Origin: Anaerolineales bacterium
GTDB lineage: Bacteria; Chloroflexota; Anaerolineae; Anaerolineales; Villigracilaceae
Assembly (NCBI GenBank): GCA_050014715.1
Contig: JBEKCT010000002.1
Coordinates: 1,331-65,330 of the forward strand
Direction: 5' to 3'
DNA length: 64,000 bases
The position numbers and the translations under genes are program-made. Below are positions 16,928 to 53,170 of this stretch, one piece after another (position 1 is the stretch's first letter; each line of letters starts with the position of its first letter). The notes below the pieces were generated by a model. That model searched no databases. It saw nothing but the letters and a program-made list of their open reading frames with translations, and had not been told where the DNA came from.

Positions 16928-17000
16928 ATTCTTAATAACCAACTTGTTCCTTCGTAATTAATTATCCCTTCTCTGTTACGCAATTGCGTGCTGGTACCCG

Positions 17001-18047: not shown

Positions 18048-18174
18048 TGGCCGACCAGATCGATAGCCAAACACCCTATATACTGAAAGCGGCCTGGCCG
18101 AATGCGCCTTTTACCAAAACCGCCATCCCCCCGCTGTTAGCGGTGGAGAATTTCAGAAGAGGAGATAAATTATT

Positions 18175-24818: not shown

Positions 24819-24835
24819 CGCCAACTCCAACCCCT

Positions 24836-27699: not shown

Positions 27700-27719
27700 A
27701 GTATCCTTTCTTAAATTAT

Positions 27720-28904: not shown

Positions 28905-28935
28905 TGAATAACCTCTCTGCAGTTGCGGTCCGTTG

Positions 28936-29916
28936 CTATTGGTCCATTAAATTCAAGATTGCTTGCTTGACCTTCTCTTCGCTTGGGATGACCATCGCCT
29001 CAAGGTTCTTACTGTACGGCATGGGCACATCCAACCCCGCCACAATGACCGGCTTGACATCGAATAGATCAAATGCTCGTTCCGTGAGCTGGGAGACAAT
29101 TTCACTACCAATTCCACTGCGGCGGTTTGCTTCATGCGTTACAACCAGTCGATGGGTTTTCGATAATGAGCGGATCACGGTTTCGTAATCAAAAGGATAG
29201 ATGGTGCGCGGGTCGATCACCTCACATTCAATACCCATGGCGCTCAGGTCCTTGGCTACTGCTAGGGCTTTGTGGACCATAATCGAAATCGCAACGATGG
29301 TCACATCCCGGCCTTCGCGGCAGACCGCAGCCTTTCCAAAGGGGAGCGTGTACTCTTCTTCCGGCACCTCACCCTGAATCTCATATCCGCGCTTATGTTC
29401 AAAGAAGAGTACTGGATCATTGCCGCGCAGCGAGGTTTTGAGCAGCCCCTTGACATCGTAAGGTGTGATCGGCATCACAACCTGCAACCCCGGGACATGG
29501 CTGAACCATGATTCAAAAGATTGAGAATGCTGAGCTGCCTGGCCGCCCCCCGCACCAACCGGGGCACGAATCACCATCGGGACATTAATCTTTCCGCCAA
29601 ACATATAGCGAATCTTTGCCACCTGGTTGACCAATTGATCCATCCCAATGGTGATCCAATCCGAATAAAGAATTTCGCCGATTGGACGCAGACCGGTCAC
29701 TGCTGCCCCCAGGCATGTACCGACAATCGCTGCCTCGGAGATTGGTGTATCCAGGACCCGCTCGGGGCCGAATTCATCATAGAGGCCTTTGGTTAATCCA
29801 AAAGGATTGCCACGGTGTCCAACATCGCAGCCCATGATAATGATGGTTGGATCGCGGCGAAATTCCTCAAAGAGGGTCTCGTTAATTGCCTGTTTGATGG
29901 TCAGTACTCTGGTCAT
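28936..29916 (-). CDS. E1 beta subunit, paralogue 3
   Basis: 326 aa. Motifs seen are LDTPISE, HSQSFE and FFEHKRGY. It overlaps the E1alpha stop as ATGA (29913-29916). Confidence 0.9.
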   Translation of the reverse strand: MTRVLTIKQAINETLFEEFRRDPTIIIMGCDVGHRGNPFGLTKGLYDEFGPERVLDTPISEAAIVGTCLGAAVTGLRPIGEILYSDWITIGMDQLVNQVAKIRYMFGGKINVPMVIRAPVGAGGGQAAQHSQSFESWFSHVPGLQVVMPITPYDVKGLLKTSLRGNDPVLFFEHKRGYEIQGEVPEEEYTLPFGKAAVCREGRDVTIVAISIMVHKALAVAKDLSAMGIECEVIDPRTIYPFDYETVIRSLSKTHRLVVTHEANRRSGIGSEIVSQLTERAFDLFDVKPVIVAGLDVPMPYSKNLEAMVIPSEEKVKQAILNLMDQ

Positions 29917-31034
29917 GACCCAATTCCTTGTTCTTTCATGAACTCAGGCGAGAAAAGTCCATCGAACAACGTATCCGGGGAAGGTTCAGGGGCAAGCTTG
30001 GCATATTCGATGGCCTCCTCAACTGTTTTGCGTGCGGACGCATAGATGCCATCTACGGTTGCGCGGGTCGAGGTGTGCGAGTCAACCAGGTAGTTGGCCA
30101 TACGATCCAACGGATCAAATTCCTTCCAAGGTTCGTTGGTACGGGTATCCCGGTAGCGTTCGTCATCGGCGACAAAGTGCCCGATAAAACGGTAATACTT
30201 GGCTTCGATCAAGGTTGGCCCGCTGCCATTTCGCGCCAGCTGAGCAGCTTCCTGTACTGCGGAATATACCGCGAAAGGATTGAATCCATCCACGGTCACT
30301 CCAGGTATGCCGTATCCAACTGCCCGGTCAGAAACCTTTGGATTTTTGGCTGCCCGGTAATAGGGTAAGCTGATCGCCCATTGGTTGTTCTCGCACAAGA
30401 AGATGACGGGCAGGTTCCAGATGGCTGCCAGGTTGATCGACTCATGCCAGATACCCTGGTTTGTTCCGCCGTCGCCATGGAAACATACGGTTACATAATC
30501 CTTTTTCAACGTCTTCGCGGTCAAGGCCGCCCCGACGGCGATAGGCATACCGCTGCCAACGATTCCAGTAGCCCCCAGCATCCCTTCATCGACCGCCGCG
30601 ATATGCATCGAACCACCTTTCCCATGACAATAGCCATCAGCCTTGCCCATCAGCTCTGCCATCATCTTCTTGAGGTCCCCCCCTTTGGCGATGGTATGCC
30701 CATGGCCACGGTGGGTGCTGGAAATGAAATCAGATGTGCGCAGGGCCGCGCAGGCTCCCACTGCCACTGCTTCAGCACCGACATAGGAATGGGCTAATCC
30801 GTAGATGAAATTCTGTTTCCAAAGTTCCTTGACGTTAGTATCGAACTCGCGGATGAGGGCCATCTTCCGGTACATTTCGAGCTGCTGGTCGACGGATAGA
30901 TCAGCCGGGGCTTTCAAGGGCGTCAGAATATTCTTTCGAAATACTTTTATCGCTTGAGCGGTCTCTTCAAGTGTTACTGCTGTCGACATAATTATTTTCC
31001 TTTCTTGTTTGATTTGCCAAAACAATTGGAGCAT
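29913..31034 (-). CDS. E1 alpha subunit (TPP-dependent), paralogue 3
   Basis: 373 aa from ATG 31034; an alternative ATG at 30989 gives MSTAVTLEE. It has STHRGHGH and GDGGTNQG...CENN. Even from the alternative ATG at 30989 it keeps a longer N-terminal extension than the other three alphas. Confidence 0.88.
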   Translation of the reverse strand: MLQLFWQIKQERKIIMSTAVTLEETAQAIKVFRKNILTPLKAPADLSVDQQLEMYRKMALIREFDTNVKELWKQNFIYGLAHSYVGAEAVAVGACAALRTSDFISSTHRGHGHTIAKGGDLKKMMAELMGKADGYCHGKGGSMHIAAVDEGMLGATGIVGSGMPIAVGAALTAKTLKKDYVTVCFHGDGGTNQGIWHESINLAAIWNLPVIFLCENNQWAISLPYYRAAKNPKVSDRAVGYGIPGVTVDGFNPFAVYSAVQEAAQLARNGSGPTLIEAKYYRFIGHFVADDERYRDTRTNEPWKEFDPLDRMANYLVDSHTSTRATVDGIYASARKTVEEAIEYAKLAPEPSPDTLFDGLFSPEFMKEQGIGS

Positions 31035-31052
31035 TGCTAAGTGCTTATTTCC

Positions 31053-31805
31053 CTACAGCTGCTGGTGATCAGCCGGGTTGCTGCTCTTCTTCTCCAATTT
31101 CTCCTTTAAAGCTTGAGCTGTTACGCGTTGGGACTGACAGAGATGAGCATACATCTCTTTACTCGCACCCTCGCCGTCATGGGCAATTACATTCTCGAAT
31201 ATTCGGAGGTGAAATTGGTAACCTTCTTCCTTTACACCGGGAAGTTGGCTCGATTGTTTAATCCCTTCCAATAGGGCATCCGTCAGAGGATCTAGCAATA
31301 ATTCAAAAAAGACATTATGGGTAGCACGGGCAAGAGCAAAATGAAATTCGAGATCGACTTCCGGGTAATTCACAGGATCATCAAGATCCTCAGCCATGCA
31401 CTGGAGAATCTGCCGCATCTCAGCCAGATCTTGTTCATTTGCTCTTTCGGCTGCCAATTTAGCAGTTTGAACCTCCAGCGCCCACCGCACCTCTATCAGA
31501 TCGTCTACGGTCGCAGGGTGACCTTTAAGGTTGATCAGCATCCCGATGGAGTTGGCAACCTCCTTTCCTTGCAATATGCGCACGTAAGTACCATTACGCC
31601 CCTTCGACTCAATTAATCCTTTAGCTCTTAAAATACTGATTGCTTCCCGAACAACTGTTCGGCTTACATCAAAGGTTTGACATAACTCGCGCTCCGTTGA
31701 CAGGCGATGCCCGGCCTGAAGAGTGCCCGAGAGGATCATCTGAGTAATTTGTTCGGCCACTTGTTGAGTAAGCCTGTCGGTGCGTTTAACCGGGACGTAG
31801 TCCAT
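31053..31805 (-). CDS. GntR-family (FadR/FCD subfamily) transcriptional regulator
   Basis: 250 aa. It has the winged-HTH LSTERELCQTFDVSRTVVREAISILRAKGLI plus an all-helical FCD-type C-domain. Confidence 0.9.
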   Translation of the reverse strand: MDYVPVKRTDRLTQQVAEQITQMILSGTLQAGHRLSTERELCQTFDVSRTVVREAISILRAKGLIESKGRNGTYVRILQGKEVANSIGMLINLKGHPATVDDLIEVRWALEVQTAKLAAERANEQDLAEMRQILQCMAEDLDDPVNYPEVDLEFHFALARATHNVFFELLLDPLTDALLEGIKQSSQLPGVKEEGYQFHLRIFENVIAHDGEGASKEMYAHLCQSQRVTAQALKEKLEKKSSNPADHQQL

Positions 31806-32486: not shown

Positions 32487-32515
32487 GCAATTCGATATAT
32501 GGCAATTCGATATAT
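32487..32515 (+). repeat. tandem direct repeat GCAATTCGATATAT x2 (period 15) abutting a -35 box
   Basis: Identical 14-mers at 32487-32500 and 32502-32515, separated by one G. The last T is the first base of TTGACA. Confidence 0.7.
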
Positions 32516-32543
32516 TGACAAGACCAAGGTAGCGTGCTAATAT
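32515..32543 (+). promoter_or_regulatory. sigma70-type promoter of the sorC operon (TTGACA-17-TAATAT)
   Basis: TTGACA at 32515-32520, a 17-nt spacer, and TAATAT at 32538-32543. The sorC start is at 32579. Confidence 0.5.
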
Positions 32544-32578: not shown

Positions 32579-33565
32579 ATGGCCGTTCTCCAGAGAGAAG
32601 ACATGCCCCGATTAATTCCCACTGATGAGCTGCGACTTCTCAGCAAAGTGAGCAAGTTCTATTACGATGAGGGTATGACTCAGGATGAGATAGTTGAGAA
32701 GCTGCTGCTCTCACGCTCAAAAATCTCACGGTTGTTAAAACAGGCTAGGGAGGCGGGCATCGTTAAGATTACGGTCATCCCTCCACCGGGAGTCTTTCCC
32801 GATCTGGAAATGCAGTTGGAGAGTCGTTTCCACCTAAGGGATGTGATTGTGGTAGAGGCTCGCCAGCCAGATTCGCAGGCAGCTGTTGCGCGCGAACTGG
32901 GAATTGCCGCTGGCAGCTATTTGCACCGCACAGTCAGGGAAAGGGATGTAATTGGGATTACGTGGGGCTCGACCCTGCATTTGATGGTGGACACCATGCA
33001 ACCCAGCTCGATGCCGACCGTCCAGGTGATCCAGATCCTCGGCGGATTGGGCAGGCCCGAATCGGAGGTCCATGCCACTGATCTGTGCCGCCGGCTGTCA
33101 CGTTTGTTGAACTGCAAGCTGACCCTCCTGCCGGCACCAGGGATTGTAGATAACCAGCAGGTCAAAGAGGTCTTCCTCTCGGACAGCCACGTCCAAGGGG
33201 CAATGAGCTTTTTCCGAAAATTGACGATAGCTATCGTGGGGATCGGCTCGCCAACACCGGATTCAGCGGTGATGCGGGATGGATCAATTATTAATAAGGT
33301 TGAACTAAATGATTTATTGAAGCGAGGTGCAGTTGGAGATATTGCCTTGCGTTTCTTTGACTCGTTCGGCCAACCGGTACTATCAGATGTCAATGACCGG
33401 GTGATAGGGATCACCATGGAGCAGCTTTCAAAAGTAGAGCGGGTGGTGGGGGTAGCCGGCGGCCCGCATAAATTTACTGTTATACAGGCCGCCTTACGGG
33501 GCAGATTGATCAATACACTAATTACCGATCATGCAACCGCTCGCAGGCTGCTCGAATCGGATTAA
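32579..33565 (+). CDS. SorC/DeoR(B. subtilis-type)-family sugar-binding transcriptional regulator
   Basis: 328 aa. It has the N-terminal HTH LLSKVSKFYYDEGMTQDEIVEKLLLSRSKISRLLKQAREAGIV and a C-terminal sugar-phosphate-binding (SorC) domain. Confidence 0.88.
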   Translation: MAVLQREDMPRLIPTDELRLLSKVSKFYYDEGMTQDEIVEKLLLSRSKISRLLKQAREAGIVKITVIPPPGVFPDLEMQLESRFHLRDVIVVEARQPDSQAAVARELGIAAGSYLHRTVRERDVIGITWGSTLHLMVDTMQPSSMPTVQVIQILGGLGRPESEVHATDLCRRLSRLLNCKLTLLPAPGIVDNQQVKEVFLSDSHVQGAMSFFRKLTIAIVGIGSPTPDSAVMRDGSIINKVELNDLLKRGAVGDIALRFFDSFGQPVLSDVNDRVIGITMEQLSKVERVVGVAGGPHKFTVIQAALRGRLINTLITDHATARRLLESD

Positions 33566-33595
33566 GGTACACCCATAACAATCAGGAGCCTTTCA

Positions 33596-34204
33596 TTGGT
33601 ACCGGATGAAATTTTGCAGCTCGCTTCGACAGTGATCAGGCAGGAAAGCGCTGGGATTGCAACACTCTGCGACCAGCTGGACCAGTCTTTCGTTGAGGCT
33701 GCCTACAAACTGTTCAATTGTAAAGGGCATGTGTTGGTGACCGGCTCAGGTACATCGCATGCGGTCGGTGCTCGCTTGGCCCATCTGTTGTCGTGCTGCG
33801 GCACCCCGGCACTGTTTATCCACCCAGGAGACAGTCAGCACGGCTTGGCCGGAGCGGTGCTGGGAGATGACGTGCTGATTGCGCTCTCCAAGGGCGGTGA
33901 GACGGTTGAGGTCAACTACCTGGCCAGCTACGCCAAAAAAATTGGCGCATCCCTGATCGGCCTGACCGAAAAACCCGCCTCAACTTTGGGCAAGATGTGT
34001 GACGTGGTGTTAAAGGTCCAGGCTCCGGCTGACATTGACCCTTATGGCATGATTGCCACCGGTAGTTCCCTGGTAAATGCAGCTCTCGGCGACGCTCTAT
34101 GTGTGGTATTGCTTAAATTGCGCGGTTATACCCGCGAAGACTTTGGCAGGACCCATCCAGGTGGGGCGGTAGGCATCAAACTGTCCCAAGAGCCGGGCAA
34201 GTAA
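33596..34204 (+). CDS. SIS-domain sugar-phosphate isomerase (KpsF/GutQ-like, no CBS pair)
   Basis: 202 aa, TTG start behind AGGAG. The segment VLVTGSGTSHAVGARLAHLLSCCGTPALFIHPGD..HG and ALSKGGET match the SIS fold of arabinose-5-P isomerase-type proteins. Confidence 0.8.
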   Translation: MVPDEILQLASTVIRQESAGIATLCDQLDQSFVEAAYKLFNCKGHVLVTGSGTSHAVGARLAHLLSCCGTPALFIHPGDSQHGLAGAVLGDDVLIALSKGGETVEVNYLASYAKKIGASLIGLTEKPASTLGKMCDVVLKVQAPADIDPYGMIATGSSLVNAALGDALCVVLLKLRGYTREDFGRTHPGGAVGIKLSQEPGK

Positions 34205-34213
34205 GGGAGCGGC

Positions 34214-35272
34214 ATGAAAGCAGCGTTTTTGATCGGCGCCAGCCAATTTGAAGTTCGCGATGTTCCAGCTCCGAATCTTCCACCCGACGGTATTTTGTTA
34301 AAGGTGGTGACCTGCGGGATATGCGGCTCGGATCTGCGGCGCTGGAAGGAAGGTCCCTACCCTGGCAGTGACCGGCTGGTCCCCGGGCACGAGGCAGCCG
34401 GTATCATCGAGGCGGTAGGCGCTGAAGTGAAAGACTTTCGGCTTGGCGAGCGCCTGGCGATTGCCCCGGATGTTCACTGCGGCACCTGCTACTACTGCCA
34501 ACGCGGCCTATACAACCTATGCGATGACCTGCGCTTTTTAGGAATCACTCCAAACTATTCGGGCGGCTTCGCCGAAAAAATGGTATTAACCGGCCAAGTG
34601 CTTGAAAATGGTATTGTACACCGCATGCTGGAGGGTATGAGCTTTCCCCAGGCTTCTTTTGCCGAGCCGTGCAGCTCGGTGCTGGCCTCCCACGACAAAG
34701 CCGGGACCAGTCTGAGGGATACCGTGCTGGTGATGGGCGCCGGTCCGATTGGCTGCCTGCATATCGTGATAGCAAAGGCGCGCGGGGCGCGGGTGATACT
34801 GTCCGAGCCCAGCGAAATCCGCCGCAACCTGGCACAGCGGTTTGGACCCGATCTGGTGATCGATCCATCCAGTGAATCTGTGGTCGAGCGCGTCCGCCAA
34901 TTCACCGGCGGGTTGGGTGCCGATATTGCCATTTGCGCCAACCCGATAGCAGCTACCCAGGCCGAGGCGGTCGAGGCGGTCCGCAAAGCGGGCAGGGTCA
35001 TTCTTTTCGGCGGCCTGCCGAAGGCAGATCAATTGACATCAATGAACGGCAACCTGATCCATTACGGTGAAATCACGGTGATCGGGGCTTTCTCTTATCA
35101 CCCAACCTATCACCAACAGGCCATCGAGGCGATCGGCCGCGGTTTGATCCCGGTAGATCACTTTATCACACACACATTTGCATTGGAACATATAAACGAA
35201 GCCTTCTATGCTGCTGCTGGTGGGCAGGCTTTGAAGGTAATGATAGAAATACAACAAAAAACTAAAGTCTGA
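34214..35272 (+). CDS. Zn-dependent polyol dehydrogenase (MDR family, sorbitol/iditol-DH-like)
   Basis: 352 aa. It has [16 protein letters not shown], the structural-Zn motif [10 protein letters not shown], and GAGPIGCL. Confidence 0.85.
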
Positions 35273-35278
35273 GAACCG

Positions 35279-36625
35279 ATGATTGGATTAAACCAGGAAC
35301 TAGAAGAGCGAGAAGCTTCTGGAAAGCCCGTGCGGATTGGGCTGATAGGGGCCGGGCAAATGGGCACCGATGTGGTGGCCGAAACCAGGATGATGAAGGG
35401 CATCCAGGTTATTGCTGCCGCGGATATAGATATCGAACGAGCGCGCGAGTCCTATGAGATTGCCGATATTAATGCAGAAGTGGTCGTTGCCTGTACTCCT
35501 GAAGAAGCAGATGCCGCGGTTGCTTCAGGGAAACGGGTGGCCACTCAGGATTACCGCGTGATCACGGATATGAAAAACATCGATGTCATGCTGGAGGCAA
35601 CCGGTGTGCCGGAGATCGGGACACGCGCAGCCTTGCGAGCGGCTCGCCACGGACATGACCTTTCCATGATGAACGTTGAAACCGACATAACCGTTGGCCC
35701 ACTTTTAAATTGGTATGCCAGGCAAAAAGGCGTTTTATATGCTCTGGCAGCCGGTGATGAGCCAGCCGCCTGTAAAGAACTGTACGATTTCGCTGATTCA
35801 CTTGGTTTCACGATCGTGGCGATTGGCAAAGGGAAAAACAATCCACTCGATCGGCACGGAACCCCGGCTGATCCGGTTGTAATGAAGGAAGCTGCCCGGC
35901 GCGGGCTGAGCCCGAATATGCTGATCGAGTTTGTTGATGGCAGCAAGACAATGGTTGAGATGGCTGCTGTCTCCAACGCCACCGGGCTGGTTCCGGATGT
36001 GCGCGGCATGCATGGCCCGGAAACCAACCGGGATATCCTCAACCAGACCTTCGCTCTCAAAGAGGACGGCGGCATTTTGAACAAAATGGGAGTGGTTGAT
36101 TTTGGGATCGGACATGTTGCCCCGGGAGTTTTTGCCATTGTCCGCACCGACCACCCCCGTCTGCGCCAGGCGATGATCTTGCGCGATATGGGCAATGGTC
36201 CATACTACACTCTTTTCCGCCCCTTCCATCTGTGCAGCATCGAGGTTCCCCTGACCTGCGCCATGCTGACCATCCGCAAGAAACCCAACATGGTCCCGCT
36301 GAACCGGCTGGTTTCCGAGGTATTTGCAGTGGCCAAGCACGACTTGATGTCCGGCGATGTGCTGGACGGGATTGGCGGGACAGCCTACTACGGCCTAATC
36401 GATACTTTCGAGAACGCCAAGGCTGAAAACCTGCTGCCAATCGGTCTGGCCAAGGGCGCTAAAGTACTCCATCCACTTAAGATCGACCGCCCCATTTCGT
36501 GGAGTGACGTGGAAATTAATCCCTCGACTGTGCTGGACCTGCGCCGGTTGCAGGATGCCTGGTTTGAAGGAAAGATCGGCGATCCAGAACTGTTGGCGGC
36601 CATCGATGCCCTGGCGAATGACTGA
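35279..36625 (+). CDS. NAD(P)-binding oxidoreductase with C-terminal SAF domain (COG4091-type, 'predicted homoserine dehydrogenase' family)
   Basis: 448 aa. Motifs seen are [53 protein letters not shown], and a C-terminal [21 protein letters not shown]-like segment. Architecture was recognised by eye. Confidence 0.7.
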
Positions 36626-36669
36626 GAAGTCTGATCGATTCTGTTAACCTAATGAGAGGAGCGCAAACC

Positions 36670-38079
36670 ATGTCACGAGCTACCCTGGGAGTGATTGTTG
36701 GAAACCGAGATTTCTTCCCTGACCGATTGGTCACCGAAAGCCGTAAAGATATCCTGACTCTGTTCAAGGAGCTGGATATAAAGCCGGTGATTTTGAAAGA
36801 AACCGATACCAAGTTGGGTTCCGTTGAAACCTACAGCCATGCGAAAGCCTGCGCCGAGCTCTTCCGCCAAAACCGGGACCGTATCGACGGCATCCTGGTT
36901 ACCCTGCCAAACTTTGGCGATGAAGGCGGTGTTGCGGAAACGATCAAGTTGTCCGGGCTGAATGTACCTATCCTGGTACAGGCTTATCCGGATGATTTAA
37001 ACCAGCTCAACGTGGAGCGCCGCCGGGATGCATACTGCGGCAAGATCTCCGTTTGTAACAACCTGCGGCAATATGGTTATGCCTACACCTTGACCGAGCT
37101 GCACACCGTTCACCCACTCAGCCCGAGTTTTCGCAAGGACCTAGAAAAGTTTGTGGGCATTTGCAGCGTGGTCAAGGGCATGCGCTCTGTGCGCCTGGGC
37201 CTGGTGGGCGCTCGGCCGAACAATTTTAAGACCGTCCGCTTTAGCGAGAAACTCCTGCAGTCCTACGGCATTACGGTCTGCACGATCGATCTCTCCGAAA
37301 TCTTCGGGGAAGCCAAACGGATCGCGGACGATGATGCAAGGGTCAAGACCAAGCTGGGCGAAATAACCAGTTATATCAAGACAACCGGCGTGCCGTCTGA
37401 ATCGCTGGTGCGCATGGCCAAATTTGGGATTGTCCTGTCAGATTGGATGAGCTCCAATGACCTGCAGGCCAGCGCTTTACAATGCTGGGACTCGATCCAG
37501 AAAAACTATGGTGTCAATGCCTGCACCTTGATGAGCATGATGAGCGACCAGCTGATGCCCAGCGCCTGCGAAACAGATATCACCGGTGTGGCATCGATGT
37601 ATGCCCTGCAGCTGGCATCGAAAAAACCAAGCGCACTGGTTGATTGGAATAACAATTACGGCGATGATCCGGACAAGGTAGTGTTCTTCCACTGTGGCAA
37701 TTGGGCAAAAAGCTTCCTGCCCGGGTTTGAAATGAAGACCGCTGAGATCCTGGCGACCACCCTAGGCGAGCGCAATACATACGGCGCAGTCGCCGGGCGA
37801 GTCCCACCAGGACCGGTCACTTTTGCCCGCATCACCACCGACGATGTGGTTGGCATGATCCGGACCTATGTTGGCGAAGGCCGCTTTACCGACGACCCGC
37901 TGGATACTTTCGGCAGCCGGGCGGTGGTCGCCATCCCCGGTCTACAAAAGATGATGCATTATATTTGCAAGAACGGCTTCGAGCATCATGCTGCCATGAA
38001 CGGCTCATTGACGGCAGATATTCTAGCGGAAGCCTTCGAGAACTATTTCGGTTGGGAAGTTTATCAACATCATGGGTAA
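36670..38079 (+). CDS. L-fucose/L-arabinose isomerase-family protein
   Basis: 469 aa from ATG 36670, which has GAGGAG 8 nt upstream; the ORF-track start at 36652 lacks an SD. Motifs seen are [19 protein letters not shown] and FHCGN, with the domain length of the FucI-like family. Confidence 0.75.
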
Positions 38080-38082
38080 TTC

Positions 38083-39606
38083 ATGAACTTGATCGGTCTG
38101 GATATCGGCACGACCGGGTGCAAAGCTTCGTTGTTTGCTGACGACGGCCAGCTGTTAGGCAGCGCCAGCCGGGAATACCCGGTGGATATCCCCCAGCCTG
38201 GTTGGGCCGAGCAGGATGCTGAACGGGTCTGGTGCCTGGCGCAGGAAGCCCTGCGCCAGGCGCTGGCTGCGGCAGGCGTCAGCCGGGTCGAAGCGTTGGG
38301 GCTGTCAGTGCAGGGCGAAGCGGTCTTGCCGGTTGATGCGGATGGACTGGCTCTCCGTCCGGCCATCTTGGGCATGGACACCCGCACCGGCGATCAAAAT
38401 AAATGGTTATCCGAGCGCGTTGGCGCGAAGTATCTGTTTCGTCACACGGGCATGCCAGTTCACACAATCAATACGCTGCCCAAGCTGCTCTGGTTGAAAC
38501 AAAATGAGCCGGAGGTCTGGAAGCAGGCCACCCATTTCCGCCTTTATGAAGATTTCTTGATCCAAAAGATGACTAGCAAGGCTTTGATCAGCCGCTGCCT
38601 GGCATCCCGCACCCAGTTATTCGACCTGTCGGCGGATGATTGGTCGGATAGGATTTTGCAGGCCATCCAACTGGATCGGAGGCGGCTCTCCACCGTCAGT
38701 CCCTCGGGCGTGGCCGCAGGTGAAATGCTGCAGGAGCTGGCGGAAGGGCTGGGTTTGAAAAACCGCCCCCTGGTGGTTACCGGCGGTCACGACCAGGCGT
38801 GCGGCGCCCTGGGCTGCGGATTGACGCGACCTGGCCTGTCGATGGTATCGACTGGAACGGCGGAGGTAATGGAAGTCGCGCTGGCAACTCCGGTTCTCAC
38901 TCCCTCCCTCGAGCGGAGGAACATCTCTGTCTATGCCCATGTCGTACCCGGGCTTTACTTGGCGATGGCCTTGAACCACAGTGGCGGACTGGTGCTTCGC
39001 TGGTTCCGCGATACGTTTTGCGAGGAAGAAATGCGCACGGCAGAAGCGAGCCATCAGGACCCATATGATCTGATTTTCGAGGGTGCTGACCGGGACCCAT
39101 CTCCGCTCCTACTCCTGCCCCATTTTGCGGGGAGCGGGACACCCGATTTCGATACCCAGTCCAAAGGGGCGTTGATCGGGTTGACCTTTGCAACGACCAA
39201 GCAGGATATTGCCAAGGCGATATTGGAAGGATTGACGTTCGAGCTGCGCTGCAACCTGGAGGTGTTTAAAGCCGGTCATATCGATATCCAGGAGCTGCGC
39301 GCAATCGGCGGAGGGGCCCGGTCAAAGCTGTGGCTGCAGATCAAGGCTGACGTAACCGGCATCCCTGTTCGGGTGCCGAAGATTACTGAAAGCGCCTCCT
39401 GGGGCGCCGCGATTCTAGGCGGGGTGGCAGCAGGTTGTTTCGCGAGCATCCTGGAAGGGGCTGAGCGGTCTTTACAGTTTGAGGCTGTGGTAGCACCCGA
39501 TCCTCACCAGCAAGCACGGTACGAACCCCGCTACCATCTCTACCGAAGTCTGTACCCACTCTTAAAACCGGTCCTCCACGAGGTCGGTGAGGTGAAAAGA
39601 ATGTAA
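38083..39606 (+). CDS. FGGY-family carbohydrate kinase (xylulokinase-like)
   Basis: 507 aa. It has the LIGLDIGTTGCKA phosphate-1 motif, GGHDQACGALG, and IGGGARSKLWLQIKADV. Confidence 0.9.
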   Translation: MNLIGLDIGTTGCKASLFADDGQLLGSASREYPVDIPQPGWAEQDAERVWCLAQEALRQALAAAGVSRVEALGLSVQGEAVLPVDADGLALRPAILGMDTRTGDQNKWLSERVGAKYLFRHTGMPVHTINTLPKLLWLKQNEPEVWKQATHFRLYEDFLIQKMTSKALISRCLASRTQLFDLSADDWSDRILQAIQLDRRRLSTVSPSGVAAGEMLQELAEGLGLKNRPLVVTGGHDQACGALGCGLTRPGLSMVSTGTAEVMEVALATPVLTPSLERRNISVYAHVVPGLYLAMALNHSGGLVLRWFRDTFCEEEMRTAEASHQDPYDLIFEGADRDPSPLLLLPHFAGSGTPDFDTQSKGALIGLTFATTKQDIAKAILEGLTFELRCNLEVFKAGHIDIQELRAIGGGARSKLWLQIKADVTGIPVRVPKITESASWGAAILGGVAAGCFASILEGAERSLQFEAVVAPDPHQQARYEPRYHLYRSLYPLLKPVLHEVGEVKRM

Positions 39607-39729: not shown

Positions 39730-39757
39730 TTGACACGAGTAAATTATTGTCTATAAT
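39730..39757 (+). promoter_or_regulatory. sigma70-type promoter (TTGACA-16-TATAAT) upstream of the ABC-transporter block
   Basis: TTGACA at 39730-39735 and TATAAT at 39752-39757. ACACGAGTAAATT overlaps the -35 box (39733-39745), and the variant ACATCAGTAAATT lies at 39766-39778. Confidence 0.5.
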
Positions 39758-40172: not shown

Positions 40173-41309
40173 ATGAAAACCCGAATATTGCTTGTATCTT
40201 TAATCGTGGCGGCGTCCATGATCCTGAGTGCCTGCGGATCAACCCCCACGGCTGCGCCTGCTACGGTTGCGCCTGCTGGTCCAACCGCTACGCCGCAGAT
40301 TATCATCCAGACCCAGGTGGTCATGGAGACCGCTGTTCCATCGAAGAAAAGTGTGGTCATCGGTTATGCCGCCCCAGGCCTGGTCGGTGGGCAAATTAAC
40401 ATCCAGGAGACCCTGCTCCGCTACGCTCAGAATAAGGGCTGGCAGGTGTCCGTTACCAACTCGAATGGCGATGCCCAGAAGCAAAATGATGATATTGACT
40501 ATTTGATCTCCCAGGGCGTCAGTGCGATCGTGGCCGTCCCTCAGGACAGCGCCGCGATTTGCGCCGGTGCTGCCAAGGCTAAGGCGGCCAATATCCCCTT
40601 CTATACCATTGACCGCGCTCCGTCTGGCTGCGCCATCAATATGACTATCGAATCCGATAACACCCTCGCCGGGAAGCAGGCTGGGCAGGCAATGGTTGAC
40701 GCCCTCAAGGTGAAAAACGGCTCCGAAAAGGGTATTGTGCTGGAGATCACCGGCGATCTGGGCCAAGATGTGGGCCAGAAACGCCGCGATGGCTTCCACA
40801 GTGTCGTGGATACGTTCCCGAACATCAAAGTCATCCAGAAGGTCGGTAACTGGGATGCCGCGACAGGCGCCACGGCCGTTCGCGACGTTTTGACCGCGAA
40901 CCCCACCCTGGACGGCATCTACATGGCCTCCGACGCCGTGTATATCTCCGGCACCATGGCTGAACTCAAGGCGGCCAATAAGCTCTTCAAGGTCGGCCAA
41001 CCGGGCCATGTCATCCTGACTTCCGTCGACGGCTCTCCGGCTGGTGTCCAGGCCATCAAGGATGGCTGGGGGGACGAATCCTCCAACCAACCCATCCCGG
41101 ATTTCGGGCTGATCGTGAACTTCATCGATCAGGAATTGGGTGGTAAGCCGGTCCAGGAAGGCGCATTCACCCAGGCTGGCGCCCTCTGGTCACCTGCCCA
41201 GATCGTAAAAAACTCTGACGGCACCCCTACCTGCCTGTTAGCCACTACCGCTGTCACAGCCGCCAATGACACCGATCCCGGTCTGTGGGCGAACTACGTA
41301 GTGAAATAA
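40173..41309 (+). CDS. sugar ABC transporter substrate-binding lipoprotein (CUT2/RbsB-like, PBP type I)
   Basis: 378 aa, with AAGGAG SD. It has a signal peptide with the lipobox ILSAC|G, a Thr/Pro/Ala linker, and then a periplasmic-binding-protein fold. Confidence 0.88.
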   Translation: MKTRILLVSLIVAASMILSACGSTPTAAPATVAPAGPTATPQIIIQTQVVMETAVPSKKSVVIGYAAPGLVGGQINIQETLLRYAQNKGWQVSVTNSNGDAQKQNDDIDYLISQGVSAIVAVPQDSAAICAGAAKAKAANIPFYTIDRAPSGCAINMTIESDNTLAGKQAGQAMVDALKVKNGSEKGIVLEITGDLGQDVGQKRRDGFHSVVDTFPNIKVIQKVGNWDAATGATAVRDVLTANPTLDGIYMASDAVYISGTMAELKAANKLFKVGQPGHVILTSVDGSPAGVQAIKDGWGDESSNQPIPDFGLIVNFIDQELGGKPVQEGAFTQAGALWSPAQIVKNSDGTPTCLLATTAVTAANDTDPGLWANYVVK

Positions 41310-41348
41310 ACTACTGTTCTCCAAAGATCGGTAATTAGTTTGTAATGT

Positions 41349-41388
41349 CCTGCCCCGTGTTCTTTGAGCCCTTTAGCACGGGGCAGGA
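41349..41388 (+). terminator. 11-bp GC hairpin after the binding-protein gene (attenuator/partial terminator)
   Basis: CCTGCCCCGTG (41349-41359) pairs with CACGGGGCAGG (41378-41388). The T-run is displaced 8 nt downstream. This is the usual position for differential expression of an SBP. Confidence 0.4.
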
Positions 41389-41442
41389 TCCAAAATTTTC
41401 CCGATTATCAACGGGCTTATACTTTAAAGAAGAGCGGAGCTT

Positions 41443-42963
41443 ATGATAGCAACGGATAGCTCACCTGTAATTCAAATGCAAGATATTGTAAAAACCTTCC
41501 CTGGGGTGCGCGCTCTGGACCACGTCAATTTTGAATTGAAACGCGGCGAGTTGCGATCCCTGGTGGGTAAAAATGGCGCAGGGAAGAGCACCCTGATGAA
41601 CGTCCTGACAGGTATCTACCAACCGGATCAGGGCAAGATCTTCATCAACGGGGAACTCATTCACCCGATGACGACCGAGCGGTCCAGGCAACTGGGGATC
41701 GCTTACGTTCACCAGCAATCTCAACTCATCCCTGCTCTTTCCATAGCAGAGAACATCTTTTTAGGCAGTCCGCTTACCCGCAGTGGCGGGTTTGTGGATT
41801 GGAAACGGCTGATTTCGGAAGCTACCAAACAGTTGCACACACTCGGTCTGGAGATTGATGCCGAACGAAAGATAGAAGACCTGACCGTTGCGGAAAAACA
41901 AATTATCGAAATTGCCAAAGCCTTGTTTGCAAACGCCCATACGATTATCCTGGACGAGGCGACGGCTCCCCTGCCCAAAGAAGAGGTCAATATGTTATTT
42001 GACTTCGTGCGCCGGCAGAGCGAGCAGGGCGTGGCATTCGTTTACATTTCCCACTACCTCGAAGAGGTATTCGAGCTGTGCCAGGTGGTCACGGTGATGC
42101 GCGATGGCCAGATCATCGGTGAAAACCAAGTCTGCGATCTTGACCAGTCGGAATTGATTCGCCTGATCAGTGGAACACAGGTGGAGCAGTTCCACCGCGA
42201 ATCGCATAACACACAGCGGAAACCAGTTCTGGAGATTAAGGGCCTGACCCGTCCCGGGTTCTATAGGGATATCCATCTGACGGTTTGTGAGGGCGAGGTG
42301 GTCGGCCTGACCGGGCTGGAGGGATGTGGTAAAGGCAACCTGGCGCGTGGTGTATATTCGCTCGAGCCGCGCGGGAATGGCGAAGTTTTATTGGCTGGCC
42401 AACCGTTTTCTCCCACCGGGCCCGAAAGCGCGCTTAATGCTGGCGTGGCTTACCTTCCCCGCGACCGGCATGGGATGGGCCTTATAGGGATGCGGCCGGT
42501 TGGGGAAAATGTTACCCTTTCTATCCTCAGGCGGTTATGCAACCGATTTGGTTTACTGGACCCCGGTAAAGAACGCAGACATATCAGTTACTTTATCAAA
42601 AAGTTAGGCATCATGACCCCTTCGGTCAATCAGCCGGTGGAGTTCTTGAGCGGCGGCAACCAGCAGAAAGTTGTGTTCGCCAAGCTGGCATCCACCGAGC
42701 CCAAAGTCCTTTTTCTGGATGAGCCCACCCAGGGTGTTGACGTCCAGGCCAAGGTCGAGATCATGAGGATCATCGACCAGCTGGCTGGCCAAGGAGTGGC
42801 GGTTATCTATATTTCCGAAGAAATTCGTGAGCTGCTGGATGTGTGTGATCGCATCCTGGTCATGTATAACGGCGAAATCTCCTCGGAATTCAAGCCTGGT
42901 GACCCGAACTACAACGCTCACCAGATCCTCGGTGCCGTGGAAGGAGAGCGGGTGACCCTATGA
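41443..42963 (+). CDS. sugar ABC transporter ATP-binding protein (duplicated ATPase, RbsA-like)
   Basis: 506 aa. It has Walker A GKNGAGKST, the signatures in LTVAEKQIIEIAKAL and LSGGNQQKV, and two NBDs in one chain. Confidence 0.92.
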   Translation: MIATDSSPVIQMQDIVKTFPGVRALDHVNFELKRGELRSLVGKNGAGKSTLMNVLTGIYQPDQGKIFINGELIHPMTTERSRQLGIAYVHQQSQLIPALSIAENIFLGSPLTRSGGFVDWKRLISEATKQLHTLGLEIDAERKIEDLTVAEKQIIEIAKALFANAHTIILDEATAPLPKEEVNMLFDFVRRQSEQGVAFVYISHYLEEVFELCQVVTVMRDGQIIGENQVCDLDQSELIRLISGTQVEQFHRESHNTQRKPVLEIKGLTRPGFYRDIHLTVCEGEVVGLTGLEGCGKGNLARGVYSLEPRGNGEVLLAGQPFSPTGPESALNAGVAYLPRDRHGMGLIGMRPVGENVTLSILRRLCNRFGLLDPGKERRHISYFIKKLGIMTPSVNQPVEFLSGGNQQKVVFAKLASTEPKVLFLDEPTQGVDVQAKVEIMRIIDQLAGQGVAVIYISEEIRELLDVCDRILVMYNGEISSEFKPGDPNYNAHQILGAVEGERVTL

Positions 42964-44000
42964 ACAGTCGAAAAATCATATTATGGGTTTTGAATAACTT
43001 GATTTGGTTCTTATTATTGTTGACGGTCATTTTCTTTGCGCTGATATCGAAACACTTCCTGACCCGCATCAACCTGACGAACATCGTTATCCATGCTGCC
43101 GTAATCGGCCTTTTGGTGGTCGGCCAGGTGTTTACGCTGGTTACCGGGAACTTTGACCTATCCTCGGAGGCAACGCTGGGATTAACTGCGCTCATCGCCG
43201 CCTGGCTGATGCTCCCCAAGGGGGCACCGACTTTTGGTGGGGGAATCCTGTTCAGCGTCTATCTGGCCGTTCCGATCATGCTCCTTATCGGGGTGTTGAT
43301 CGGCTTGATCAATGGGCTGCTGATTACCCGCCTTAAAGCAAATGCCTTTATTGTGACCCTGACCATGCAACTGATCATCCGCGGGGTCATGATGCCAATC
43401 ACCGCGGGCAATACCATGGCCCGACTTCCGGCTGATTTTAAGTTCCTGGGTAATAACTCGCTCGGCCCTATCCCGATTTCAGTGATCGTCCTGGTCGTGG
43501 CGTTCGCAATCGGCCATATTATTTTGCAATACCGGCCTTTTGGCCGCAGTTTATTTGCGGTCGGCGGGAATAAGACTGCAGCCCTGGCGGCGGGTATTAA
43601 CCCCGACAGGCGCATCCTCCAAGTCTATGTAATCAGTGGTCTTATGGCAGCTATCGCCGGGTGGCTGATGGCAGGCCGAACGGGTGTGATTGTCCAGAAT
43701 ATGGGCCAGGGTTACATCTTTGAGGTGATGGCGGCCTCGGTTATCGGTGGGATCAGCCTGAACGGGGGGCGCGGTACAATGGTGGGTGCATTCGGCGGGG
43801 TGCTTCTCCTCTCGACAATTGAATCCGGGTTGAGCCTTATGCGGATCTCAACATTCTGGATTGAAATCGCGAGTGGTCTGATTATCCTGATCGCCATGCT
43901 CATTGATGCCCAGAAAGTCCGCTTCACCTCCTCTCAGGCAGCCCCCCTGGCCAAAATTAGTGCCAAAGCCACGGCCTCCGAGTCTGCTGGGAACGATTGA
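42960..44000 (+). CDS. sugar ABC transporter permease (RbsC-like)
   Basis: 346 aa, polytopic and hydrophobic. It has the FGRSLFAVGGN motif. Its start overlaps the ATPase stop (ATGA). Confidence 0.9.
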   Translation: MNSRKIILWVLNNLIWFLLLLTVIFFALISKHFLTRINLTNIVIHAAVIGLLVVGQVFTLVTGNFDLSSEATLGLTALIAAWLMLPKGAPTFGGGILFSVYLAVPIMLLIGVLIGLINGLLITRLKANAFIVTLTMQLIIRGVMMPITAGNTMARLPADFKFLGNNSLGPIPISVIVLVVAFAIGHIILQYRPFGRSLFAVGGNKTAALAAGINPDRRILQVYVISGLMAAIAGWLMAGRTGVIVQNMGQGYIFEVMAASVIGGISLNGGRGTMVGAFGGVLLLSTIESGLSLMRISTFWIEIASGLIILIAMLIDAQKVRFTSSQAAPLAKISAKATASESAGND

Positions 44001-44068
44001 GCGGTATCCATTCGGCCGACTGGTGGAATCTCTTTTTTCATTTTTAATATAGAAAGGTTGGACACTCC

Positions 44069-50640: not shown

Positions 50641-50652
50641 ATAAGGTGACTT

Positions 50653-51105
50653 ATGAAAATCATTATTGGCAGTGATCACGTTGGCTTCCCACTGAAGGAA
50701 ACGATTGTGCAGCATCTCAAGGACCGCGGATATGAGCCGGTAGATTTGGGCGTGCGGGACGAGACGCCGGTCGATTATCCGGATATCGGTCAGAAGCTGG
50801 CGGAGTGCGTTGCCCGAGGGGAGTACGAACGGGGGATCCTGGTGTGCGGTACGGGGATCGGCATGGCAATTGTGGCTAACAAAATCCCGGGTGTGCGAGC
50901 AGCAGTATGCCATGATCCCTATTCGGCTGACCGTGCGCGTAAAAGCAACAATGCTCAGATAATGACTCTGGGCTCCCTGGTGGTCGGCGCGGAGCTGGCC
51001 AAAATACTGGTTGATATCTGGCTGGCATCTGAATTTTCCGGTGGGCGATCAGCACCCAAGGTGGAAAAGATCAATGCCTTGGACGCTTATTACCGGAAAC
51101 GCTAA
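50653..51105 (+). CDS. rpiB: ribose-5-phosphate isomerase B / LacAB-family sugar-phosphate isomerase
   Basis: 150 aa. Motifs seen are MKIIIGSDHVGFPLK, ILVCGTGIGMAIVANK and GGRSAPKVEKI. Confidence 0.9.
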   Translation: MKIIIGSDHVGFPLKETIVQHLKDRGYEPVDLGVRDETPVDYPDIGQKLAECVARGEYERGILVCGTGIGMAIVANKIPGVRAAVCHDPYSADRARKSNNAQIMTLGSLVVGAELAKILVDIWLASEFSGGRSAPKVEKINALDAYYRKR

Positions 51106-51120
51106 GAAATCTGGTGAACC

Positions 51121-52113: not shown

Positions 52114-52115
52114 TC

Positions 52116-53156: not shown

Positions 53157-53170
53157 TCTTTTGGAGAACT

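Follow-up and report, generated by a model that had tools for sequence, protein, structure and literature searches.

Among described sugar and polyol systems, the glucitol operon of E. coli has the gene order srlAEBD-gutM-srlR-gutQ. For the branched sugar D-apiose, a transketolase pathway cluster (ApsI, AplK, AptA/AptB; Carter et al. 2018) is known in Pectobacterium, and the function of the E. coli ST131/SE15 apiose cluster (ECSF_RS02670-02715) was confirmed via growth on apiose (PMC13001218). Three oxidative apiose routes are also known to include the D-apionate oxidoisomerase ApnO (EC 1.1.1.421; PMC13753588). For the DRL/DXR-II family, reductoisomerase activity converting DXP to MEP has been demonstrated and a fosmidomycin-bound crystal structure solved (PDB 3UPL/3UPY), and the DXR-II of Chloroflexus aurantiacus complements a dxr mutant (PMC3847144). 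This family is known only for making isoprenoid precursors, yet in the window (the whole 64,000-nt stretch of DNA analysed here) one member lies inside a sugar-breakdown operon.

The six-gene block is encoded entirely on the + strand with gaps of 30, 9, 6, 26, and 3 nt, and the positions, gene order, families, and short junctions (measured at 3-30 nt) given in the earlier note all hold. The first gene (nt. 32579–33565, 328 aa) encodes a sugar-binding transcriptional regulator of the SorC/DeoR(Bsu) type (PF04198, 246 bits, with an HTH); it does not reach the DeoR and LsrR equivalog cut-offs and shares 40% identity with its SorC-type counterpart in the E. coli SE15 apiose cluster. It is followed by a single-domain, KdsD/GutQ-like SIS sugar-phosphate isomerase with a TTG start (nt. 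33596–34204, 202 aa; PF01380, no CBS pair), well short of the KdsD model's cut-off (159 versus 505 bits), whose nearest structures are 3FXA (a Listeria SIS-only protein) and 2XHZ (the KdsD SIS domain). The third product is a Zn-dependent medium-chain polyol dehydrogenase/ketose reductase (nt. 34214–35272, 352 aa; PF08240 and PF00107), which resembles ketose reductases, its nearest structures being 4EJ6, the NADP(H) ketose reductase 1E3J, sorbitol dehydrogenase, and L-arabinitol 4-dehydrogenase. The fourth gene (nt. 35279–36625, 448 aa) encodes a DRL/DXR-II-family NAD(P)-dependent reductoisomerase (PF21135 DRL_cat at 207.6 bits plus a C-terminal SAF domain).

The fifth gene encodes a predicted AraA/FucI-fold aldose-ketose isomerase of a ~470-aa branch (nt. 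36652–38079, 475 aa; Fucose_iso_C domain only). The protein had no sequence match in the PDB, and its model (pLDDT 89) aligned to L-arabinose isomerases with TM scores of 0.81-0.83 at 10-14% identity and to FucI with a TM score of 0.76; it thus represents a third branch of the fold, in agreement with the earlier view of these proteins as distinct from canonical FucI and AraA. Residues E307, D331, H347, and H445/H446 are invariant among 20 homologues, with numbering that we take to lie near that of the metal and catalytic residues in AraA, and the protein appears, from sequence and model, to keep an AraA-like metal and catalytic set. The final gene encodes an FGGY-family sugar or polyol kinase (nt. 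38083–39606, 507 aa; FGGY_N and FGGY_C), which stays below the XylB model's cut-off (341 versus 380 bits), has LsrK (5YA0) and XylB (2ITM) as nearest structures, and is 24% identical to the apulose kinase AplK of E. coli SE15.

Upstream of the block lies a promoter-like site (nt. 32515–32543, + strand; TTGACA-17-TAATAT with TG before the -10 box). It is identified by consensus alone, and the region contains as many such sites in total as expected from shuffling. Two identical 14-mers (GCAATTCGATATAT; nt. 32487–32515, + strand, period 15) abut the -35 box and may be a candidate SorC operator, a reading that gains no comparative support since no copies with up to 3 mismatches were found upstream of sorC among 16 related loci. 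A perfect consensus promoter of the next, transporter block (nt. 39730–39757, + strand; 12/12 matches) marks the 3′ boundary of the six-gene unit, and a terminator scan found none convincing within the block or past its last gene. Since the six-gene order recurs in many other genomes at 50-83% protein identity, we judge the arrangement to be far beyond chance. Another 35 loci, drawn from at least seven phyla (Chloroflexota, Planctomycetota, Verrucomicrobiota, Acidobacteriota, Bacillota, Calditrichota, and Spirochaetota, plus one alphaproteobacterium), carry the module SIS–Zn-ADH–DRL(–FucI-like)–FGGY, with DRL adjacent to ADH in 34/35, SIS in 32/35, FGGY in 28/35, and FucI-like genes in 26/35. 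Two cultured bacteria, Massiliimalia massiliensis Marseille-P2963 and Pleomorphomonas carboxyditropha SVCO-16, also have it. Ribulose-phosphate 3-epimerase (RPE)-family genes in five loci and xylose-isomerase-like TIM barrels in three lie near the module, and would fit a pentulose-phosphate product. The proposal in the earlier note, of a catabolic block headed by sorC and acting on a sugar or polyol yet to be assigned, is supported, and a literature search found no publication assigning an orthologous cluster to a pathway.

We assign the fourth product to the DRL/DXR-II family on its sequence, and regard it as the key enzyme of the block. It is a full-length homologue of Brucella abortus DRL (PDB 3UPL/3UPY), which it matches over residues 1-428 (E 2e-115; 46% identity over the full alignment), keeps K191, K193, T229, H250, R320, G121, and V351 (Brucella numbering), and retains every DXR-II diagnostic and phosphonate-binding residue named in PMC3847144. 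The earlier view that the COG4091/SAF family lacks an experimentally defined sugar substrate was thus wrong, given the known DRL/DXR-II activity and structure (PMC3847144). The DXR-II catalytic core was invariant in every context group of DRL homologues compared, and a tree placed the window DRL, which is single-copy in the host genome, between Listeria-type and Brucella-type DXR-II proteins. Seven positions (33, 171, 263, 308, 325, 350, and 397; Brucella numbering) consistently separate the window clade from the alphaproteobacterial clade, a difference that would suit an identical substrate (MEP/DXP) as well as a hydroxylated analogue.

Downstream on the + strand are several operons with a bearing on the block. 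A CUT2-type ABC importer (nt. 40173–45106; binding protein, ATPase, and two permeases by Pfam) is the probable uptake partner; homologues (46-52% identity) lie downstream of the six-gene block in loci L003, L005, and L010, while other relatives have a different ABC set inserted within the block, and the window binding protein is weakly similar to known sugar binders. A split transketolase follows (nt. [quoted passage not shown] An M24-fold protein without a named family (nt. 48061–49158; PF00557, no NCBIfam match) has a homologue directly after the FGGY gene in L003, and in each of L003, L005, L009, L010, L011, and L039 one is encoded on the same strand no more than 6 kb away. Finally, a group encoding an RpiB-cyclase fusion, RpiB, E1-alpha, E1-beta, and E2 of a pyruvate-dehydrogenase-like complex (nt. 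49477–54415) travels with the block in some relatives: the cyclase-E1-E2 module also flanks it in L003, L011, and L039, and the window E1-alpha (nt. 51121–52113) groups with those copies (99% SH-aLRT). This synteny in other genomes backs the link to neighbouring thiamine enzymes (E1/E2 and transketolase) drawn in the earlier note.

A further association was with apiose. GH140 apiosidase-like genes (PF13204, up to 377 bits) occur inside the orthologous operon of L008/L090 (DRL 77% identical) and, in L019 and L029, immediately upstream in the same orientation, and in the spirochaete locus L033 the module is joined to an AptA/AptB/AplK-like trio (44, 37, and 41% identity). Across 401 genomes of the class, GH140-like genes were present in 35/89 DRL-positive versus 46/312 DRL-negative genomes (odds ratio 3.7, p = 1.3e-6, on raw genome counts that ignore phylogeny and genome size), and in 9/89 DRL-positive genomes, spanning three DRL clades, the two genes are no more than 10 kb apart. 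Some of the GH140-like neighbours match weakly (23-26% identity to the references used, with E values of roughly 1e-21 to 1e-30) and are not necessarily apiosidases, and the host genome contains no GH140 gene.

Our tentative reading, to which we give a probability of about 0.45, is that the block breaks down a branched C5 sugar by a route not yet described, the likeliest substrate being plant-derived D-apiose or its alditol, and that the operon is accessory and SorC-repressed, with the DXR-II/DRL enzyme working in the breakdown direction. The substrate is assigned here solely from gene neighbours and chemical analogy; the likeliest role of a DXR-II-family enzyme in a host without that isoprenoid pathway would be to straighten a branched plant sugar, and its physiological direction is probably oxidative. 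The neighbouring ABC system would import the free sugar, and the subsequent steps are modelled on enzyme families and chemistry: the AraA/FucI-fold isomerase would convert D-apiose to the achiral ketose apulose, which the Zn ketose reductase would reduce to apiitol, setting the configuration because apulose is achiral. The FGGY kinase would then yield apiitol phosphate, a hydroxylated analogue of methylerythritol phosphate (MEP), and this polyol phosphate is probably the phosphorylated intermediate that DRL oxidises and rearranges. With NAD(P)+, oxidation followed by a retro-aldol/aldol skeleton shift, the DXR reaction in reverse, would give a linear pentulose 5-phosphate, a hydroxylated analogue of DXP. 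The SIS isomerase (RPE-type or other epimerases in other genomes) would lead on to pentose-phosphate intermediates for cleavage by the neighbouring transketolase or E1/E2 complexes, with the reductase and DRL steps cancelling out in redox terms. As the DRL/DXR-II identity changes the likely chemistry, the linear order suggested earlier (polyol/aldose to ketose to ketose phosphate to SIS) is probably incomplete. Against the apiose route, the role of SIS is unexplained if DRL already gives xylulose or ribulose 5-phosphate, C1-phosphorylated D-apiitol would be opposite in configuration to MEP if the isomerase and reductase did not together invert it, and some loci, such as L029, carry no FucI-like gene.

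Other roles for the enzyme were weighed against this one. That it supplies MEP for isoprenoids beside unrelated neighbours would accord with the activity that defines the family and with the rescue of the dxr mutant by the C. aurantiacus enzyme (PMC3847144), but is close to negligible in likelihood given the genomic setting. Among the genome of this uncultured Anaerolineales host and those of 30 relatives there were no real matches to DXR-I and none to IspG (0/31), and HMG-CoA reductase was present in 29/31, indicating that the lineage uses mevalonate; DRL is itself accessory, being found in only 2 of these 31 genomes and absent from 29, and its gene has junctions of 6 and 26 nt in a regulator-headed sugar operon conserved across phyla. 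The same activity in reverse could instead serve breakdown of 2-C-methyl-D-erythritol or 1-deoxy-D-xylulose, with the kinase forming MEP or DXP, DRL converting MEP to DXP, and an acetoin-dehydrogenase-like E1/E2 cleaving the methyl acyloin DXP to acetyl-CoA and glyceraldehyde 3-phosphate. Such a route would use exactly the chemistry proven for the family in an active site nearly identical to that of the DXP-using clade, and it draws on the E1/E2 operons on both sides of the window block, the cyclase-E1-E2 module kept in the three relatives above, and 13 loci (alphaproteobacteria and a Halanaerobium) in which E1-alpha, E1-beta, and E2 directly follow DRL, several continuing with LpdA and LipA and accompanied by a SorC regulator as well as a divergently oriented ABC importer plus PfkB kinase. 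The verified Brucella DXR-II nests within this E1/E2-linked subclade (99% SH-aLRT). We nevertheless consider it improbable, as it leaves no role for SIS, Zn-ADH, and FucI-like proteins, the most constant partners in the window clade, a 2-C-methyl aldose is an impossible substrate for an aldose-ketose isomerase, and the GH140 linkage is unexplained. In addition, E1/E2 is adjacent in only 3/35 loci of the window DRL clade, and the E1-alpha tree ties no window E1 specifically to the DRL-linked group.

A rather stronger contender, albeit still on the unlikely side, is an unbranched pentose or pentitol route (e.g., D-arabinose, D-arabitol, ribitol, or xylitol), where the isomerase and dehydrogenase would produce a pentulose or pentitol for the kinase, DRL would be a plain polyol-phosphate 2-dehydrogenase without skeleton rearrangement, and SIS would interconvert arabinose 5-phosphate and ribulose 5-phosphate. 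The nearest characterised relatives of all families act on linear C5/C6 sugars (KdsD/GutQ for SIS, XylB and LsrK for the kinase, sorbitol/arabinitol dehydrogenases for the ADH, and AraA/FucI for the isomerase), the RPE-family neighbours fit, and, DXP being a linear C5 ketose phosphate, the DRL active site could bind pentulose 5-phosphates. Moreover, Listeria/Ligilactobacillus DRL homologues fill the sorbitol-6-phosphate dehydrogenase slot of glucitol-type PTS operons beside tkt and fsa. What such a route does not explain is the invariance of the full DXR-II catalytic core, including reductoisomerase-tied residues, the repeated physical linkage to GH140 apiosidase-like genes, the reduction of a ketose before phosphorylation when pentuloses can be phosphorylated directly, and the dedicated E1/E2/E3 complexes adjoining DRL in alphaproteobacteria.

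Compared with these known systems, the window DRL shares its three-domain architecture, including SAF, with Brucella abortus DRL (Carretero-Paulet et al. 2013, PMC3847144) but differs in that its gene lies within a sugar operon under SorC control, which also encodes two isomerases, a kinase, and a polyol dehydrogenase, in a host without the MEP pathway. In the glucitol operons of E. coli and Listeria/Ligilactobacillus (PTS), too, a polyol-phosphate dehydrogenase is found together with a SIS isomerase of the GutQ type, the latter operons having a DRL homologue in the dehydrogenase slot behind a SorC-type regulator, whereas the window block relies on an ABC importer and kinase rather than a PTS, has a SIS without GutQ's CBS pair, and adds an isomerase and Zn-ADH. 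Like the apiose transketolase cluster, the window has a CUT2 ABC importer, an FGGY kinase, and a SorC-type regulator (40% identical to its counterpart there), together with oxidoreductases for which an alditol intermediate is proposed; it also has a split transketolase, which lies in the operon after the block and shows only family-level identity (36-40%). The known transketolase route lacks DRL, SIS, and an AraA/FucI-fold isomerase, and was rejected as the identity of the block, the window kinase being only 24% identical to AplK. ApnO has no sequence or fold relation to DRL, its fold being ketol-acid-reductoisomerase-like and its substrate an unphosphorylated sugar acid; the analogy is functional, in that a single active site combines NAD-dependent oxidation with carbon-branch migration to yield a linear skeleton from apiose carbon.

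The six-gene block occupies nt. 32579-39606 on the forward strand, comprising a SorC-type regulator (nt. 32579-33565), a SIS-only KdsD/GutQ-like protein (nt. 33596-34204), a Zn medium-chain dehydrogenase (Zn-ADH, nt. 34214-35272), a protein joining the catalytic domain of the DXP reductoisomerase-like enzymes (DRL, or DXR-II; PF21135) to a SAF domain (nt. 35279-36625), a FucI-like protein with the C-terminal fucose-isomerase domain only (nt. 36652-38079), and a FGGY kinase just below the XylB cut-off (nt. 38083-39606). ORF calling, together with Pfam and NCBIfam, bore out all six ORFs of the earlier note in both position and family, with successive junctions of 30, 9, 6, 26, and 3 nt. A promoter-like consensus match (TTGACA-17-TAATAT, nt. 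32515-32543) lies upstream of the block, and a perfect consensus promoter was matched for the ABC-transporter block downstream (nt. 39730-39757). In 16 related loci, the region upstream of sorC held no counterpart (≤3 mismatches) to the tandem 14-mer at the sorC promoter of the window (nt. 32487-32515). On sequence grounds, the six genes are a real operon and belong to a conserved module found in multiple phyla.

The window DRL matched PF21135 at 207.6 bits (cut-off 27) and its C-terminal SAF domain scored 27.7 bits (cut-off 21) in Pfam, while residues 1-428 aligned with residues 7-435 of the Brucella abortus structure 3UPL (E 2.3e-115), i.e., homology over the full length. DRL/DXR-II is an alternative DXP reductoisomerase of the MEP pathway, and both 3UPL and 3UPY represent the B. 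abortus enzyme, with fosmidomycin in the latter (PMC3847144). Carretero-Paulet et al. distinguished true DXR-II from the DLO1 and DLO2 oxidoreductases, its inactive sister families, with Lys191, Lys193, and Thr229 (phosphonate anchors) as well as His250, Arg320, Gly121, and Val351 as the residues that mark DXR-II and contact fosmidomycin or the substrate (PMC3847144). The window DRL keeps all of these (Brucella numbering), and K191, K193, T229, H250, and R320 were invariant in an alignment of 36 clade members. Judged by its sequence, it is a bona fide member of the DXR-II clade. Given these marker residues and the homology to 3UPL, the statement in the earlier note that this COG4091/SAF-type family has no defined sugar substrate was wrong.

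A biosynthetic role, as known for DXR-II in the MEP pathway, is very unlikely for the window DRL given that this pathway is missing from its host. No DXR-I was found in the window genome (93.8% complete), nor any real match to it across the genomes of the genus and order (0/31), and IspG was likewise absent (0/31). HMG-CoA reductase was present in 29 of the 31, the window genome included, and the lineage therefore uses mevalonate. The absence of IspG and DXR-I from the 31 genomes argues against service of the window DRL in the MEP pathway, and since only two of the 31 carry DRL, it is an accessory gene. DXR-II has already been noted in Chloroflexus, which relies on mevalonate only, and in Finegoldia, where both pathways are missing, with no explanation offered (PMC3847144).

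We surveyed 80 DRL loci (one genome per species), comparing their ORFs with the window proteins. In the 35 loci of the window group, DRL was adjoined by the Zn-ADH in 34, the SIS protein in 32, the FGGY kinase in 28, the FucI-like protein in 26, and a sugar-binding protein in 20 (all lower bounds, six contigs being short). Binding proteins lie within the operon at L004 and L008. Cultured carriers of the module include Massiliimalia massiliensis Marseille-P2963 (L029) and Pleomorphomonas carboxyditropha SVCO-16 (L037). These loci span Chloroflexota, Planctomycetota, Verrucomicrobiota, Acidobacteriota, Bacillota, Calditrichota, Spirochaetota, and one alphaproteobacterium. Locus L003 (1.68-Mb contig; DRL 83% identical) has the complete block with its gene order unchanged; there, an M24-fold gene and an ABC importer come after the six genes, and a set of aldolase-II, PfkB, cyclase, E1, E2, and cupin genes comes before them. 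DRL also occurs in other contexts. At 13 loci (rhizobia, Aminobacter, Rhodobacteraceae, and one Halanaerobium) it is directly followed by E1-alpha, E1-beta, and E2, accompanied by a SorC-type regulator, a divergent ABC importer, and a PfkB kinase; on Sinorhizobium plasmids, LpdA follows the DRL-E1-E2 genes, with LipA in addition in S. meliloti Rm41. In Listeria and Ligilactobacillus, DRL takes the dehydrogenase slot of a glucitol-type PTS operon. The solo DRL genes of Ochrobactrum and Mesorhizobium have no sugar-catabolism genes beside them, their neighbors being a HAD hydrolase, the transhydrogenase PntB, a P5C reductase, and an O-antigen-ligase-like gene; the sugar context is thus not universal in the family.

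In a maximum likelihood tree of 96 sequences, the window DRL fell in a clade of SIS/ADH-linked genes only (95% SH-aLRT). This clade, a smaller SIS/ADH-linked clade, and the alphaproteobacterial clade that holds Brucella 3UPL join in an unresolved fork, and the verified Brucella enzyme is nested within an E1/E2-linked subclade (99% SH-aLRT). The Listeria-type branch lies outside the window and alphaproteobacterial clades, a bracketing made insecure by the single long outgroup branch that roots the tree. All groups share an invariant catalytic core. The window clade differs consistently from the alphaproteobacterial clade at only seven positions, and these do not discriminate between a methyl and a hydroxymethyl substrate branch. 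A second, older DRL paralogue (41-47% identical) was noted in many Chloroflexota and one spirochaete (loci L012, L013, L014, L015, L017, L022, L033, L091, and L096-L098); it has its own FGGY kinase, often with a glyoxalase-fold gene, and adjoins the main module, often alongside GH140-like genes. Aminobacter aminovorans BE290 carries two near-identical DRL copies (L069 and L080, noted together with L084), one followed by E1/E2 and one apparently alone, possibly a snapshot of recruitment from a catabolic operon.

Among the partner enzymes, the FucI-like protein lies outside AraA and FucI proper at the sequence level in both PDB and NCBIfam. It had no PDB sequence match at E 1e-3, and its sole NCBIfam match (sulfoquinovose isomerase SftI) reached 100 bits against a cut-off of 700, which agrees with the view of the earlier note that these ~470-aa proteins are distinct from the canonical enzymes. 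Its structural model (pLDDT 89) nonetheless showed the three-domain AraA/FucI fold, the set of metal/catalytic acids and histidines included, with TM scores of 0.81-0.83 to L-arabinose isomerases and 0.76 to L-fucose/D-arabinose isomerases at 10-14% identity. Glu307, Asp331, His347, and His445/446 were invariant in 20 homologues, at numbering that we take to be close to the metal and catalytic positions of AraA. The protein very probably works as an aldose-ketose isomerase and represents an uncharacterised AraA/FucI branch. The structures nearest to the Zn-ADH are a ketose reductase, sorbitol dehydrogenase, and arabinitol dehydrogenase. The FGGY kinase fell outside XylB (TIGR01312; 341.4 bits, cut-off 380.25) and was equally near LsrK and XylB in structure matches. 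The SIS protein (202 aa), which is SIS-only with no CBS pair, fell outside both KdsD (159 bits vs. 505) and GutQ (131 vs. 481), its nearest structures being the SIS-only Listeria protein 3FXA (closest) and the SIS domain of KdsD.

The link to D-apiose comes from the gene neighborhoods. We clustered the unlabelled neighbors of the 35 loci and scanned the recurrent ones for domains, which identified GH140 apiosidase-like genes (PF13204) in several. At locus L008, such a gene (377 bits) lies within the operon, between the binding protein and the permease; L090 holds the same operon, which is orthologous to the window block. Another lies directly upstream of sorC (L019), and two copies directly precede the SIS-ADH-DRL-FGGY genes of the cultured Massiliimalia massiliensis (L029). 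Genes of the ribulose-phosphate-3-epimerase family were found near five loci and xylose-isomerase-like barrels near three. Among 401 genomes of the class, 89 carry DRL and 81 a GH140-like gene, and 35 have both, where 18 would be expected (odds ratio 3.7; Fisher p 1.3e-6, a test which ignores shared descent and genome size). In nine genomes, that of L090 among them, no more than 10 kb separates the two genes; the chance expectation, roughly estimated, is well under one, and this physical linkage spans three DRL clades. GH140 is absent from the window genome, which would need to take up free sugar that other organisms release. The window binding protein (nt. 40173-41309; nearest structures 4Y9T/5BR1, E 5e-30; 30% identical to that of the E. 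coli apiose cluster) is uninformative on specificity.

The surroundings of the block are also rich in enzymes of sugar type. E1/E2 sets lie at nt. 7996-16110 (reverse strand), 23865-31805 (reverse strand), and 49477-54415 (forward strand), the 64-kb window containing four E1-alpha/beta pairs and three lipoyl-E2 genes, all amid sugar-type enzymes; the lineage seems to make wide use of acetoin-dehydrogenase-like complexes in sugar breakdown. The set at nt. 7996-16110 additionally holds a NAD-kinase-like (AcoX-like) protein, a Gfo/Idh/MocA oxidoreductase, a xylose-isomerase-like barrel, an SDR, and a Zn-ADH. The window E1/E2 proteins all fall slightly short of the PDH equivalog cut-offs, so none can be named. 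In the E1-alpha tree, the grouping that would tie a window E1 to the DRL-linked E1 group is an unresolved polytomy with long branches; the E1-alpha at nt. 51121-52113 alone grouped firmly, with cyclase-linked copies. Downstream of the six genes, the PfkB kinase (nt. 47100-48047) scored 341 bits, above the ribokinase equivalog cut-off of 299.65. On paper, this gives the transporter block a ribose-like look, even though relatives carry it together with the six genes. The ribokinase gene is followed by an M24 peptidase-fold protein of no named family (nt. 48061-49158), which may be a non-peptidase pathway member; its counterpart at L003 (nt. 14317-15441 of that locus) directly follows the FGGY kinase, and same-strand homologues occur no more than 6 kb away in L003, L005, L009, L010, L011, and L039. 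At the window start, a gene of the MttB family (trimethylamine methyltransferase-like; nt. 3872-5329) adjoins isocitrate/isopropylmalate-dehydrogenase-like and transaldolase-like genes.

The analysis directly establishes the family assignments and conserved residues, the lack of a MEP pathway in the host, the synteny, and the linkage to GH140. The most likely role of the six-gene block is the catabolism of a branched C5 sugar, a reading to which we assign a probability of roughly 0.45, with D-apiose as the best candidate. The FucI-like isomerase would convert apiose to the achiral apulose, which the Zn-ADH, acting as a ketose reductase, would reduce to apiitol, thereby fixing the configuration. 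Phosphorylation by the FGGY kinase would give apiitol phosphate, i.e., MEP with its methyl group hydroxylated, and the DRL could then convert this to a pentulose 5-phosphate by a DXR-type oxidation and rearrangement, parallel to the conversion of MEP to DXP. The SIS protein, or epimerases of the RPE type or other kinds in other genomes, may trim the product for the pentose-phosphate pathway, and the neighboring transketolase or E1/E2 complexes could possibly cleave it. The substrate, the reaction direction, and the sequence of steps are inferred; the SIS step and the stereochemistry are the weak points. The searchable literature, outside which most subscription journals fall, held no account of such a pathway (methylerythritol catabolism, DXR-II after 2013, and apiitol/apulose), and none of the conserved module either.

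A plainer route for a pentitol or pentose, in which the DRL is a simple polyol-phosphate dehydrogenase, would suit the characterised proteins to which each enzyme is most closely related, and the PTS-type DRL operons as well. We nevertheless regard it as rather unlikely, given its poor fit to both the GH140 linkage and the invariant reductoisomerase core. Still less probable is the breakdown of methylerythritol or deoxyxylulose, with the E1/E2 complex splitting DXP, which leaves the SIS protein, the ADH, and the FucI-like isomerase without a role, even though the alphaproteobacterial E1/E2 operons and the E1/E2-rich surroundings in the window are consistent with it.

The presence of a DXR-II-clade gene in a mevalonate-only host and in a multi-phylum sugar operon turns a puzzle into a testable proposal, that the main job of the family is catabolic. 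We tentatively propose that DXR-II may at root be a catabolic enzyme which linearises branched C5 polyol phosphates, forming here the core of a fifth D-apiose pathway and serving methylerythritol degradation in the E1/E2-linked alphaproteobacterial operons, and that Brucella, Bartonella, and Mesorhizobium would have recruited such a catabolic gene for isoprenoid synthesis later, once DXR-I had been lost. DXR-II has been described as a redundant and patchy substitute for DXR, and its persistence alongside DXR-I or without a MEP pathway was left open in 2013 (PMC3847144). A catabolic root would explain the redundant DXR in such bacteria. Were the substrate D-apiose, the operon would represent a new route in abundant anaerobic Chloroflexota, Planctomycetota, Clostridia, and others for a sugar that is present in all higher-plant cell walls (rhamnogalacturonan-II, apiogalacturonan, and apiosides). 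The DRL would then be a second enzyme, unrelated to ApnO, that couples oxidation to branch migration, and the ~470-aa AraA/FucI-like isomerase branch would gain its first function.

The known apiose routes comprise one transketolase route and three oxidative routes via D-apionate and ApnO (PMC13753588), and E. coli ST131 can grow on apiose by means of its transketolase cluster (PMC13001218). Using E. coli SE15 as the reference cluster, we noted that its SorC-type regulator is 40% identical to the window SorC, whereas its kinase AplK is only 24% identical to the window FGGY kinase (100 bits), leaving the block with no AplK orthologue; on this account, the six genes are not the known apiose route. 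The split transketolase of the neighboring operon in the window shares 40% identity with AptA and 36% with AptB, which does not exceed the similarity among unrelated split transketolases. ApsI is a TIM-barrel protein of the xylose-isomerase-like family, and the corresponding domain (PF01261) is absent from all six block proteins, with two AP_endonuc_2 genes located elsewhere in the window (nt. 14154-14960 and 54630-55493). The families of the oxidative routes (the KARI-fold oxidoisomerase ApnO, the DUF1537 kinase OiaK, and the RuBisCO-like OiaC/OiaX) were not found in the six genes or in the other window ORFs scanned. ApnO was considered as a relative of DRL and rejected, as it has a KARI-like fold unrelated to DRL. 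In a spirochaete (locus L033, nt. 15471-18762), an AptA/AptB/AplK-like trio (44, 37, and 41% identity) lies directly beside a DRL module, so this one locus may combine the established apiose pathway with the putative new route.
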